From: Rhabdothermincola salaria
GTDB lineage: Bacteria > Actinomycetota > Acidimicrobiia > Acidimicrobiales > Acidimicrobilacustridaceae
Length of the DNA: 64,000 bases
Assembly (NCBI RefSeq): GCF_021246445.1
Contig: NZ_JAJQXW010000001.1
Coordinates: forward strand, 1,258,168-1,322,167
Direction of reading: 5' to 3'
Shown here: in pieces, positions 59,692 through 62,830 of the stretch
Layout of the letters: every line of letters begins with the position of its first letter
How positions within the stretch are numbered: position 1 is the stretch's first letter
Position numbers and translations under genes: made by a program
Notes under the pieces: model-generated
The model's input: only the letters and a program-made list of their open reading frames with translations
The model's database searches: none
Told to the model about the DNA's origin: nothing

Positions 59692-59704
59692 GACTATGGG
59701 CGAC

Positions 59705-59837
59705 GCGGAGCGCCGCCGGTGCGAGACGGGTCGCTGGCGCTCCCGACGTCTCGCCACCCCCCACCCCGACACGAACCCACCCCGGAACGCGGAGCGCCGC
59801 CGATGCGAGACCGGCCGCTGGCGCTCCCGACGTCTCG
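59705..59837. repeat. two near-identical 49-bp structured direct repeats (59705-59753, 59789-59837), variant of the 49174 repeat
   Basis: GCGGAGCGCCGCCGRTGCGAGACSGGYCGCTGGCGCTCCCGACGTCTCG twice, 35-bp C-rich spacer. Confidence 0.9.
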
Positions 59838-59848
59838 GCCGATGCGGG

Positions 59849-60067
59849 TCACTCGGCGACGCCGGCGCCCGAGCCGTCGCCCTTGTAGGGCTTGTAGCCG
59901 CGGTTGCGGGCCTCGGCCAGGGTGTCGGGGCCGAAGCCGATGAACGTCTCGGCCGCCATGAGCTCGGCGATGATCTCGGGCTCGGTGAGGTTGTCGACGT
60001 CGTAGACCACCTGGGTGCGCTTGTCGCCCACCCATCGGTGCTCGGCGTACTTCCCGGGACGTTCCAT
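59849..60067 (-). CDS. small hypothetical protein (72 aa)
   Basis: GGAGG SD, GC3-rich codons, own -10-like TACGAT at 60100-60105. Confidence 0.75.
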   Translation of the reverse strand: MERPGKYAEHRWVGDKRTQVVYDVDNLTEPEIIAELMAAETFIGFGPDTLAEARNRGYKPYKGDGSGAGVAE

Positions 60068-60117
60068 TGGTCGTGCGCACCTCCGCTGCAGGGAGCCTCA
60101 TCGTAGGGCGGGCGCGA

Positions 60118-60147
60118 ACAGGGGAGGGCACGAAGGCCCTCCCCTGT
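60118..60147 (-). terminator. 12-bp perfect hairpin, probable intrinsic terminator
   Basis: ACAGGGGAGGGC / GCCCTCCCCTGT arms, 6-nt loop reading CUUCGU on the minus strand; only a short U tail. Confidence 0.65.
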
Positions 60148-60262
60148 CACTGAGTAAGTGGAATGAGACCGGTGGGACGTTGGCTACCGGGCGGGACGAG
60201 CTCCCGGCCGTCGTCACCGGCGGTGGCTGGGTGGGATTCACCAGCCGGCCCAGCTCGCCGCG

Positions 60263-60307
60263 CTAGCGACCAGCCACCTCCGAGGTCCCACAACAACCGT
60301 CGTTCAT
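60263..60307 (-). CDS. candidate 14-aa small ORF MNDGCCGTSEVAGR
   Basis: ATG..TAG preceded by GAAAGGAGGTGGTCCA; absent from ORF track. Confidence 0.45.
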   Translation of the reverse strand: MNDGCCGTSEVAGR

Positions 60308-60384
60308 CTGGTGGACCACCTCCTTTCCTCGGTCCGAGCAGTGTGCCAGCTCTGCCCCGCCGAGTGCACGCGCCTTTCGGCTCC

Positions 60385-60401
60385 GTTCACACGCCGTTCG
60401 C
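60385..60401 (-). promoter_or_regulatory. 11-bp-periodic repeat GTTCAC-n5-GTTCGC (plus-strand reading), candidate OmpR-family box
   Basis: offset from a -10-like hexamer (CACACT, 60340-60345) within 1 bp of that of the 45186 box. Confidence 0.4.
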
Positions 60402-60406
60402 AGGGC

Positions 60407-60859
60407 TCAGGAGCTCGCCGAGGGATCCGGCGGCTCGGGAACCTGACCGCCGATGGCGCCGATGGCCTCGAGGTACTCACCCGAGGCGTCGAGGACCCGC
60501 ACCACCCACACGTCGTCGAGCTCGAGACCGCCTTCGGCCGCCTTGCCGAGCACGTAGGCCAGCCCCTCGTCCTCGGCGGCGACCAGCGGACCGCTGGTGT
60601 CGTTCTCACCGAAGTCGCGGGCCACGCCCCGATCCTCGAGGTAGTCGAGGTGCCACAGCAGCAGCGCCCGCACGTCGTCGTAGGTCAGCTCGGCGGTCAT
60701 CTCCTCGGGGAGGCGGTCGGCCACGAACTCCACCGCCTCCTCGAGGTCGTACACCGACGTGGGCGGCTCGTCCTCGAGGCGGTAGGTGAGGCGCCCGATG
60801 GTGACCAGGGCGATGACCAGCACCGCCACCACGGTGAGCACGACGAAGACGATGAGCAC
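60407..60859 (-). CDS. hypothetical protein with N-terminal membrane anchor
   Basis: hydrophobic N-terminus, acidic soluble domain, TAGTCT hexamer 6 nt before GTG. Confidence 0.75.
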   Translation of the reverse strand: MLIVFVVLTVVAVLVIALVTIGRLTYRLEDEPPTSVYDLEEAVEFVADRLPEEMTAELTYDDVRALLLWHLDYLEDRGVARDFGENDTSGPLVAAEDEGLAYVLGKAAEGGLELDDVWVVRVLDASGEYLEAIGAIGGQVPEPPDPSASS

Positions 60860-60951: not shown

Positions 60952-62067
60952 TCAGATGCCGATGCGCTGGGCGAGGAGCTCGCGGTGGTAGGTGGGGTCG
61001 CCGAAGAGCAGTTCGGAGCTCTTGGCCCGCTTGAAGTACAGGTGGGCCGGGTGCTCCCAGGTGAAGCCGATGCCGCCGTGGATCTGGATGTTCTCGGAGG
61101 CGGCGTGGAAGTAGGCCTCCGAGCAGTAGGCCTTGGCCAGGGAGGCGACCGACGGCAGCTCGTCGTTCATCTCCGAGGCGCACCAGCCGGCGTAGTAGGC
61201 GGCCGACTTGGCCGACTCGACCTCGAGGAGCATGTCGGCGCACTTGTGCTTGATGGCCTGGAACGAGCCGATGGGCCGGCCGAACTGCACGCGCACCTTG
61301 GCGTACTCGACGGCCATGTCGAGGCACATCTGGGCGCCGCCGACCTGCTCGGCAGCGAGGCCGACCGCGGCGAGGTCGAGGACGGTGGACAGGGTGTCCC
61401 AGCCGGCGCCGTCGGTGCCGAGGAGGGTGGCCTCGACGCCGTCGAAGTCGAGCTTGGCCTGCTTGCGGGTCTGGTCCATGGTGGACAGCGCCGTGCGGGT
61501 GAGCCCAGCGGCGTCGCCGGGGACGTGGAAGAGGCTCACACCGGCGGCGGTGCGGGCGGCCACCACGATCAGGTCGGCCACGTGGCCGTCGAGGACGTAG
61601 CTCTTGGTGCCGCTGATCTTCCAGGTGCCGCCGTCGTCGGTGGCGGTGGCCTCGATGCCGGACTCGTCCCAGCGACCGTTGGGCTCGGTGAAGGCGAGGG
61701 TGGCGATGGTCTCGCCCGAGGCGATGCCCGGCAGCAGGGCGGCCTTGGCGTCGTCGTCACCGGCCTGCAGGATCGTGTTGGCGGCGAGCACCACCGTGGA
61801 GAAGTACGGGGCGCACAGCAGCGAGCGGCCCATCTCCTCGAGCACGACGATGAGCTCGACGTAGCCGAAGCCCTGGCCGCCGAACTCCTCGGGGATGGTG
61901 AGGCTCTGCAGGCCGAGCTGCTCGGCCATCTGGCTCCACACCGTGGGGTCGTAGCCCCGCTCGGTCTCCATCTGCTCGCGCACGGTGGCCTCGGAGGACT
62001 TGGCCTCCAGGAACTGACGGACGATGTTGCGGAGCTCTTCCTGCTCCTCGGAAAAGGCGAAGTTCAT
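60952..62067 (-). CDS. acyl-CoA dehydrogenase
   Basis: IPEEFGG.G, YAKVRVQFGRPIGSFQAIKH, QIHGGIGFTWE. Confidence 0.94.
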   Translation of the reverse strand: MNFAFSEEQEELRNIVRQFLEAKSSEATVREQMETERGYDPTVWSQMAEQLGLQSLTIPEEFGGQGFGYVELIVVLEEMGRSLLCAPYFSTVVLAANTILQAGDDDAKAALLPGIASGETIATLAFTEPNGRWDESGIEATATDDGGTWKISGTKSYVLDGHVADLIVVAARTAAGVSLFHVPGDAAGLTRTALSTMDQTRKQAKLDFDGVEATLLGTDGAGWDTLSTVLDLAAVGLAAEQVGGAQMCLDMAVEYAKVRVQFGRPIGSFQAIKHKCADMLLEVESAKSAAYYAGWCASEMNDELPSVASLAKAYCSEAYFHAASENIQIHGGIGFTWEHPAHLYFKRAKSSELLFGDPTYHRELLAQRIGI

Positions 62068-62111
62068 GGGCCGGGACGCTACGAGGCGGCGCGCCGGGCT
62101 GCAAACCATCT

Positions 62112-62121
62112 TGTGTACACA
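62112..62121. promoter_or_regulatory. palindrome TGTGTACACA, candidate vapBC autoregulatory operator
   Basis: perfect 10-bp palindrome ending 26 nt upstream of the antitoxin start. Confidence 0.6.
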
Positions 62122-62146
62122 CGCGTCCACATCTACGGTGGGTGCC

Positions 62147-62413
62147 GTGCAGATCGGCGTGCGAGAGCTCCGGGCCAACCTCGCCGGCCTCGTGCGACGG
62201 GCCCAGGCGGGCGAGGCCATCGTGGTGACCGTCTCGGGTCGACCGGCGGCGGTGCTCGGACCTGTCGGCGGCGGCCACGAGGTCGGGCTCGACGACCTCG
62301 TGGCCATGGGCGCGGTGCGGGCACCGCGGGCCCGCACGGGGCGGCCGGACGTGGCCCGCACTCCCCTGCCGGTCGACACCCGGTCCGACATCGAGCTGCG
62401 CAAGGTCCGCTGA
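62147..62413 (+). CDS. vapB: Phd/YefM-family antitoxin (VapB)
   Basis: IGVRELRANL..LVRRA.AGE.IVVT..GRPAA.L.P. Confidence 0.88.
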   Translation: MQIGVRELRANLAGLVRRAQAGEAIVVTVSGRPAAVLGPVGGGHEVGLDDLVAMGAVRAPRARTGRPDVARTPLPVDTRSDIELRKVR

Positions 62414-62416
62414 ACC

Positions 62417-62830
62417 GTGGCGCTGGCCATCGACTCGAGCGCCCTGGTGAAGCGCTACGTGGACGAACCGGAGAGCGCCGCGGTCACCGCGCTGATGGAC
62501 GCCGAGGCCCAGTGGTTCGCCTCGGACCTCGTGCGGTGCGAGACCACGATCCTGCTGGCCCGTCTGGCCACGAGCGCTCGCCAAGCCGAAGACCTCACCG
62601 CCCGTTTCTACGCCGACTGGGACGCCTTCCACGTGGTGCCCGTCGACGAACGCTGCCTCTCACGCGCCGCCGAGATCGGCGCCGACTTCGGCCTGCGGGT
62701 GGTCGACGCCATCCACCTGGCCGCCGCCACCCGGCTCCCCCGCCCCGTGCGCCTCTTGACCCTCGACCCTCGCCAGGTGCTGGCGGCGGTGGCCCTCGAC
62801 CTCGAACCGGTACCCACGCCCGAGGACTGA
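62417..62830 (+). CDS. vapC: PIN-domain toxin (VapC)
   Basis: IDSSALVK, RCE, DAIHLAAA, TLD acidic PIN residues; directly follows antitoxin. Confidence 0.9.
   Translation: MALAIDSSALVKRYVDEPESAAVTALMDAEAQWFASDLVRCETTILLARLATSARQAEDLTARFYADWDAFHVVPVDERCLSRAAEIGADFGLRVVDAIHLAAATRLPRPVRLLTLDPRQVLAAVALDLEPVPTPED

Follow-up and report, generated by a model that had tools for sequence, protein, structure and literature searches.

The stretch of DNA analysed here (the window) comprises 64,000 nucleotides of Rhabdothermincola salaria (contig NZ_JAJQXW010000001.1, positions 1,258,168 to 1,322,167), with a G+C content of about 70%. An intergenic site near its end is flanked by genes for an acyl-CoA dehydrogenase and an alpha/beta hydrolase, both identified by Pfam matches, and by open reading frames (ORFs) of 150 and 72 residues. 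On the minus strand of this site, an Rfam scan of the 64-kb window places a small RNA (sRNA) at 60162–60333, which matches RF02471 (Ms_IGR-5, "Actinobacteria sRNA") over model positions 1–184 of 184. The RNA carries a small ORF (sORF) behind a Shine-Dalgarno (SD) sequence that is complementary to 16 nt of the 16S rRNA tail, and the 3′ half of this sORF supplies strands of several helices of the fold. The features are listed below in the direction of transcription; A1 denotes the MAFFT alignment of 71 copies.

60340–60345, minus strand: −10-like hexamer CACACT, read from the sequence; it ends 6 nt ahead of where the Rfam match begins.
60333, minus strand: predicted +1 A, coinciding with position 1 of the Rfam model.
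60329–60332, minus strand: 5′ strand of helix P1, leader CCGA; pairs with 60280–60283.
60313–60328, minus strand: SD1, GGAAAGGAGGTGGTCC, complementary over 16 nt to the 3′ tail of 16S rRNA, two of the pairs being G-U.
60263–60307, minus strand: sORF of 14 codons, from ATG at 60307 to TAG at 60265–60263, read from the sequence; MNDGCCGTSEVAGR.
60285–60289, minus strand: 5′ strand of the pseudoknot, GGGAC, in sORF codons 7–8; pairs with 60193–60197.
60280–60283, minus strand: 3′ strand of P1, TCGG, in sORF codons 9–10; pairs with 60329–60332.
60270–60278, minus strand: 5′ strand of P3, GGTGGCTGG, a second SD-like sequence (SD2) in sORF codons 10–13; pairs with 60222–60230.
60238–60269, minus strand: hairpin P3a, with the last sense codon and the TAG stop inside its stem, found in the minimum free energy and centroid folds.
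60231–60237, minus strand: bulge ATCCCAC between P3a and P3, unpaired in the fold; the family motif GAATCC/GACTCC is conserved in A1.
60222–60230, minus strand: 3′ strand of P3, CCAGCCACC, anti-Shine-Dalgarno-like; pairs with 60270–60278.
60169–60220, minus strand: 3′ domain of the Rfam consensus structure, in which an outer helix P4 (CCGGTG with CACCGG; CCGGT at 60220–60216, ACCGG at 60173–60169) encloses hairpin P5.
60193–60197, minus strand: 3′ strand of the pseudoknot, GTCCC, in the P5 hairpin loop of the Rfam consensus; part of the motif GTCCCGC at 60191–60197.
60118–60147, minus strand: GC-rich terminal hairpin of 12–13 bp without a U tract (60147–60136 with 60129–60118), from sequence and fold.

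The match to RF02471 scores 45.9 bits against a gathering score of 45 (E = 3.8e-7 in the 64-kb window; the score is the same in a whole-genome search). It is the sole gathering-level Rfam match of the window and the single match of this family in the 3.9-Mb genome. The consensus helices of the family are formed; of six positions marked as non-canonical, the first helix holds two and the outer 3′ helix four. We are thus highly confident that the RNA belongs to Ms_IGR-5. A preliminary description of the locus had presented it as a new RNA, a claim that by its own standard would fall with a match to a family already described; the Rfam scan gives just such a match and identifies the RNA as a divergent member of a known family, not as a new kind. 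The structural observations of that description largely stand, as CACACT, the small ORF, the pairs GGCTGG/CCAGCC and CCGGT/ACCGG, four C-rich motifs and a 12-bp hairpin all lie on the minus strand where it had placed them. Its reading of the motifs and its proposal of cysteine sensing are not borne out by the comparisons described below.

Across a sample of the phylum, 50 of 151 genomes match RF02471 at E≤0.01, 20 of them above the cut-off. These tallies take in four unpublished genomes (G001, G018, G048 and G120), all of which match; without them, the counts are 46 of 147 and 19. A sample of 121 genomes from the organism's own class contains 32 with a match at E≤0.01, and the gathering score is reached by the window copy alone. 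Since just one of the 32 class matches passes the cut-off, the window copy belongs to a divergent branch at the very edge of what the curated model detects. The top members in the phylum score 110–186 bits, in line with kinship to the sequences of the Rfam seed; this and the G+C content of about 70% are consistent with an actinobacterial host. With these top members, the window copy shares the SD, the sORF, the stop hairpin, a GAATCC-type bulge, a CAGnCACC strand and a GTCC loop. It differs from them in having a longer P1 (CCGAGG with CCTCGG), a P3 strand without the bulged base that most members have, and a separate GC-rich terminal hairpin after the 3′ domain. The core of the family, conserved or covarying in relatives, is present in full: the extended SD, an in-frame start, a stop 15 nt after GAGGTG, P1, P3, P3a and the pseudoknot.

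The sORF was compared at 72 parsed loci, two unpublished loci, one mis-parsed and one unparsable locus being left aside. A stop codon lies exactly 15 nt after GAGGTG in all 72 (TAG in 39, TGA in 23, TAA in 10). TGG, the sole sense codon of the form T[AG][AG], is never observed at this place, compared to 12.5 occurrences expected if the two variable positions were independent. When ATG, GTG or TTG is sought 3–13 nt after SD1, a start is found in the frame of the stop at 59 of the 72 loci, in frame 1 at 3 and in frame 2 at 16. With CTG and ATH also allowed, every locus has a start in the frame of the stop, compared to 11 and 38 in the other two frames. The start codons are TTG (39), ATG (14), CTG (12), GTG (5) and ATA (1), plus one TTG 3 nt after the SD; the unparsed locus has, by eye, an ATT start and a TAG stop. 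The sORFs of relatives are 12–15 codons long. The N-terminal half of the peptide is unconserved, and a C-terminal pattern, T-[LRP]-E-V-[AVT]-[GAE]-[RC], recurs across the phylum. The claim that the RNA carries a small ORF is supported.

In 12 copies, mostly from one family (loci L013, L015–L017, L020–L023, L060, L062, L073 and L025), the sole well-spaced in-frame start is CTG, 6–7 nt after GGTG. These copies suggest that the extreme SD drives initiation at near-cognate codons.

The genome's own 16S rRNA ends in GGATCACCTCCTTTCT, and SD1, which begins 6 nt after the conserved +1 A, pairs with all 16 of these bases. Among the roughly 15,000 GGAGG sites on both strands of the genome, 16 contiguous pairs are reached by SD1 and the antisense strand of the rRNA gene alone, the next longest complements of the tail being 15 nt (two sites) and 14 nt (one site). 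The predicted duplex between SD1 and the tail has an energy of −25.1 kcal/mol. The GGTCC beside the SD is invariant even where its internal pairing partner changes. This constancy is likely imposed by something outside the RNA, most obviously by its match to the 16S tail.

Such a match could also belong to a decoy, or sponge, which would bind the tail of free 30S subunits or of 16S precursors in order to sequester, protect or mark them, with the ORF serving only to free trapped ribosomes. This explanation accounts for the coverage of the whole free tail, for the invariance of GGTCC and for a predicted duplex (−25 kcal/mol) far stronger than the internal alternatives (−11 to −16 kcal/mol). However, a single-copy sRNA would have to be very abundant to act in this way, whereas the contig depths in the RNA runs described below are low, albeit non-quantitative. 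Nor does it explain why the ORF provides most of the fold, and we regard a decoy as rather improbable.

The folding energy of the window RNA is unremarkable (z = −1.67, with 12 of 200 shuffled sequences folding as well), and the indication that its structure is more than chance comes from the Rfam match and from covariation in relatives. Covariation was assessed on A1 for 22 pairs in four proposed helices, P1, P2, P3 and P3a. The proposed structure is 91.5% paired, compared to 27–45% when the partners are slid by 1–3 columns. Compensatory cells number 194, against 63 in shuffled alignments, and none of 500 shuffles reaches 194, although these statistics overstate significance as the sampled sequences are related. 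MAFFT shifts the copies without the bulged base of P3, the window copy among them, by one column, which lowers the counts for P3. RNAalifold, run on the MAFFT alignment, recovered only parts of P3 and P3a, because variable inserts are misaligned by MAFFT.

Helix P1 (columns 3–6 with 54–57) is 95.4% paired, and three of its four pairs show compensatory changes (column pair 4–56: CG 28, GC 23, AU 12; column pair 5–55: AU 28, CG 25, GC 11). Helix P3, which across the family joins the second SD-like sequence GGTGGCTG to CAGnCACC, is 90.3% paired (columns 59–67 with 220–229), with compensatory changes in six of nine pairs (column pair 65–222: UA 43, CG 25; column pair 67–220: GC 23, AU 21, CG 7). 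Its two strands in the window form a predicted duplex of −23.8 kcal/mol. The pairing of GGTGGCTGG with CCAGCCACC, already proposed in the preliminary description, is this helix, and it covaries. As its 5′ strand lies inside the ORF, translation must refold the RNA. P3a (columns 69–72 with 206–210) is 91.5% paired, and three of its four pairs covary.

The pseudoknot (columns 48–53 with 268–273) is 85% paired, compared to 15–50% for slid partners. Column pair 49–272 is GC in 56 copies, CG in 9, AU in 3 and unpaired in 2, so that the pseudoknot is kept through two kinds of double change. The earlier proposal had paired GTGGGAC in the ORF with GTCCCAC at 60172. That partner is specific to the window and absent in the close relatives L031 and L037; the conserved partner is the loop at 60191–60197.

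Two further pairings were considered and rejected. P2, in which the GGTCC adjacent to the SD would pair with GGAC in the ORF, shows no covariation and breaks at pair 22–49 in 13 of 71 copies in which the pseudoknot partner compensates; it may at most be a transient alternative. A swap of the anti-Shine-Dalgarno-like strand from SD2 onto SD1, which would block re-initiation, gives a median duplex energy of −11.2 kcal/mol, compared to −9.2 kcal/mol for shuffled sequences and −16.4 kcal/mol for SD2.

The conserved start, frame and stop, the very strong SD and the phylum-wide recurrence of the C-terminal pattern could all be expected of a micro-gene, whose 14-residue peptide (with the consensus end T-x-E-V-x-x-x) would be the functional product and whose RNA structure would only tune synthesis or stability. 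However, the conserved residues are exactly those encoded by base-paired, covarying codons. For example, a change from Ser to Leu between the window copy and L031 is matched by a change in the leader, and a rare GCT codon is retained where the pairing needs it. The unconserved N-terminal half and the near-cognate starts in 14 copies are also difficult to reconcile with selection on a peptide. A functional peptide thus seems an unlikely explanation.

The preliminary description had emphasized four C-rich motifs, which it took for a repeated seed of a dual-function RNA. Counting both strands, the 64-kb window has 65 instances of RTYCCRC, about one per 2 kb of strand. The four on one strand within 80 nt form a genuine local cluster, albeit of a pattern defined after the fact. 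The four motifs lie in different structural contexts. ATCCCAC is the conserved bulge and GTCCCGC (60191–60197) the pseudoknot loop, whereas GTCCCAC (60172–60178) is a strand of the 3′ helix that is absent from close kin, and ATTCCAC (60158–60164) lies beyond the end of the Rfam match.

A trans-acting, base-pairing sRNA, as first suggested, would use the AATCC of the bulge to bind G-rich sites such as the Shine-Dalgarno regions of target mRNAs. The bulge at 60231–60237 is indeed unpaired, and its core (GAATCC/GACTCC) is conserved in A1. The recovery of the RNA with a foreign Hfq, reported in the founding study of the family (Li et al. 2013), also speaks for this reading. However, it is the only one of the four motifs that is both free and conserved, as the loop motif is taken by the internal pseudoknot, and the conserved free core amounts to just 3–5 nt. 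Furthermore, targeting through the bulge offers no explanation for the conserved start, frame and stop or for the 16-nt match to 16S rRNA, and we give this possibility little weight.

Several observations bear on the limits of the transcription unit. A hexamer of the form TANNNT (25 loci) or NANNNT (23 loci) ends 4–9 nt before the match at 48 of 57 loci, and the first base of the match is A at 55 of the 57. In the 80 nt downstream of the match, 21 of 30 same-class loci have a hairpin of 8 bp or more, compared to 7 of 30 in an upstream control, and the terminal hairpin is 12–15 bp long in the three closest kin. These features support the earlier description of a stand-alone structured RNA with its own −10 box and terminal hairpin. 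A free-standing RNA of about 170–220 nt, as opposed to a leader, appears to be the best explanation.

A GGGTA motif is visible upstream of the three highest-scoring loci (L002–L004). Many copies from the organism's own class (among loci L031–L059) have a promoter-like TGTGGCA.ACT just upstream of the start.

Metatranscriptome runs were found by searching with the sequence of this same site, and their contigs cannot define the ends of the RNA. Two RNA-library runs from different studies yielded contigs at 60173–60313 (with one mismatch and adapter at both ends) and 60166–60324, with nothing else covered in 901 nt. A third study contributed two runs, probably of DNA according to their label, with identical contigs at 60168–60309 and 60183–60335, plus pieces of the flanks. 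The coverage by the RNA libraries is a weak hint of expression.

Contigs from runs of all three studies end within 8 nt of one another, at 60166–60173 on the minus strand, immediately past the 3′ strand of P4 but before the terminal hairpin is reached. This position may mark a processed 3′ end or a mere assembly break.

In the window, the 72-codon ORF (60067–59849) is co-directional with the RNA and begins about 50 nt past the terminal hairpin, an arrangement also seen in L037 and L034, and the sORF contains two adjacent Cys codons. These two features had led to the proposal, as a less likely option, that the RNA is a cis-acting leader or attenuator of this gene, possibly sensing cysteine. Mycobacterial polycysteine sORFs reportedly act as leader-peptide attenuators (Canestrari et al. 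2020). The window RNA resembles such attenuators in that translation of a short ORF would change downstream RNA pairing, and in its Cys-Cys codons. Unlike the polycysteine sORFs, however, it has a 16-nt SD in place of leaderless initiation, its downstream gene is unconserved and the encoded protein has no family match. Cys-Cys occurs in only 2 of 72 copies, those of the window and of L031 from the same family, whereas another genome from this family, the third, encodes Ser-His at this place. The 72-codon gene of L031 is about 1.2 kb distant from the RNA.

Attenuation requires a conserved, co-directional downstream gene. The orientation of the next gene was determined for 24 more distant relatives by a rough ORF call based on GC3 (28 loci less four: the window, one without a downstream call and two unpublished loci); it is convergent in 18 and co-directional in 6, and the conserved co-directional arrangement is confined to the organism's own family. 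In addition, the 72-residue protein has no Pfam or NCBIfam match and no visible link to sulfur metabolism. A cysteine-sensing attenuator is therefore contradicted, and at the level of the family the sequence comparisons largely refute a leader of any kind, to which we assign only a very slight chance.

Taken together, the sequence and covariation data lead us to favor, as the probable explanation, a translated, ribosome-engaging (docking) sRNA that would be unfolded by each passing ribosome. The start codon follows 9 nt after SD1, and the 3′ half of the ORF supplies one strand each of P1, the pseudoknot, P3 and P3a. In the mechanism that we infer, a 30S subunit would dock very tightly on SD1 and initiate. 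The translating ribosome would then melt P1, the pseudoknot, P3 and P3a in turn and come to its end at the fixed stop, where the second SD-like sequence GGAGGTGG would end 6 nt ahead of the P-site codon, as at an initiation site. Each round of translation would thus unfold the RNA, which would then refold. As the N-terminal half of the peptide is unconserved, the output is presumably not the peptide; it could be ribosome engagement itself or the remodelling of the RNA, for example as a read-out of free ribosome capacity.

More tentatively, Ms_IGR-5 might represent a new type of riboregulator, a sensor of ribosome activity that would grip the whole free 16S tail, send one ribosome through a mini-frame lying at the centre of its own pseudoknotted fold and so turn translational capacity into a signal of conformation or stability. 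Capping of the +1 A with NAD might couple such a sensor to the redox or energy state. We regard this extension as possible, with a likelihood well below that of the docking RNA itself.

A number of points weigh against a translated docking RNA. Near-cognate starts are needed in some copies (CTG in 12 of 72, ATA in one and, by eye, ATT in one), and translation may be weak or absent in some clades. RNA pairing alone can explain the conservation of the 3′ half of the ORF, which leaves start, frame and stop as the only coding signals, and the covariation statistics are inflated by relatedness, as noted above. The margin of the Rfam match over the cut-off is just 0.9 bits. Scans with the sigma-70 promoter and U-tract terminator consensus sequences returned nothing for this RNA. 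Within the organism's own family, the co-directional 72-codon ORF lies about 50 nt after the terminal hairpin in three of four close genomes, and local read-through into it may occur. Finally, the remodelling and sensor steps of the mechanism are purely inferential.

The proposed docking RNA invites comparison with several known systems. SgrS/SgrT, RNAIII/hld and SR1/SR1P are dual-function coding sRNAs, which, like the window RNA, are small, stand-alone, structured and translated. In these systems, the ORF can be separated from the base-pairing domain and encodes a conserved peptide, whereas here the fold has the ORF as its core and conservation is lacking in half of the peptide. Like tmRNA, the window RNA is a pseudoknotted RNA that would engage the ribosome and has a short internal frame with a fixed stop. 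Unlike tmRNA, it has no tRNA-like domain, and entry would take place through a canonical, if extreme, SD and a start codon in place of trans-translation; Rfam gives no tmRNA match at the site. It also shares with 6C RNA (RF01066) a small size, conservation across actinobacteria and C-rich single-stranded elements. However, 6C RNA consists of two hairpins with C-rich loops and has no ORF, and thus differs in architecture. RF01066 has no match at E≤1 in 59800–60700, where RF02471 is the only family found at this threshold.

The genes next to the RNA are conserved only among close relatives. Neither the 72-residue ORF (59849–60067, minus strand) nor the 150-residue ORF (60407–60859, minus strand) has a Pfam or NCBIfam match. 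The gene order of the window recurs only in the close kin L031, L037, L034 and L059. Across the phylum sample, no conserved neighborhood was found, the exceptions being distant matches to the acyl-CoA dehydrogenase (about 28% identity), which at two loci lie on the opposite strand. Within the same family or order, both ORFs are conserved beside the sRNA, with identities of 53–79% for the 72-residue and 30–68% for the 150-residue protein.

Two other regions of the window have features of their own. The stretch between the 72-codon ORF and the alpha/beta hydrolase gene (59700–59845, minus strand) carries a unit of about 55 nt (GAGACGTCGGGAGCGCCAGCG...GTCTCGCA.CGGCGGCGCTCCGCGT) in two direct copies, each of which holds nested inverted repeats; they may represent a palindromic repeat element or two terminators. 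At 62024–62830 on the plus strand, two adjacent ORFs have lengths of 129 and 137 codons, with 3 nt between them. The second starts with MALAIDSSALVKRYV, which we take to resemble PIN-domain VapC toxins, and the two may form a toxin-antitoxin pair.

The founding report on the family, Li et al. 2013 (PMC3527728), reportedly pulled the RNA down with a foreign Hfq. Several later studies mention the family. Ms_IGR-5 was confirmed by RNA-seq in S. lividans (PMC8079986), and of the sRNA transcription units of S. avermitilis two match Rfam, this RNA being one of them (PMC8780764). Ribosome footprints were reported on its homologues in M. abscessus and M. smegmatis (PMC4974804). The M. smegmatis RNA, likewise seen as a transcript and also designated ncMSMEG15794c (PMC10454040), was captured as an NAD-capped RNA that starts with A and was called "validated but yet uncharacterized"; this capping at a +1 A is reported from promoters with a GGGTA motif (bioRxiv 10.1101/2021.12.14.472595). 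No function of Ms_IGR-5 is described in the searchable part of the literature, and a thematic search on anti-Shine-Dalgarno sequences and on actinobacterial small RNAs and ORFs returned no paper on its function.

For the window, the result is mainly one of annotation, as an unannotated gap is found to hold a copy of a catalogued sRNA. For the family, it has wider implications. In the literature that could be searched, Ms_IGR-5 has been known by name alone since 2013, yet it matches at E≤0.01 in about one third of the sampled genomes of a large phylum. The current Rfam model misses most copies in the organism's own class (1 of 32 passes), so that the family is under-annotated. Its anatomy has no explanation in print and deserves experiments. 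With 16 nt complementary to the 16S tail, conservation of start, frame and stop, and a fold formed by the ORF, it points to direct action on or by the ribosome, as opposed to ordinary mRNA targeting.

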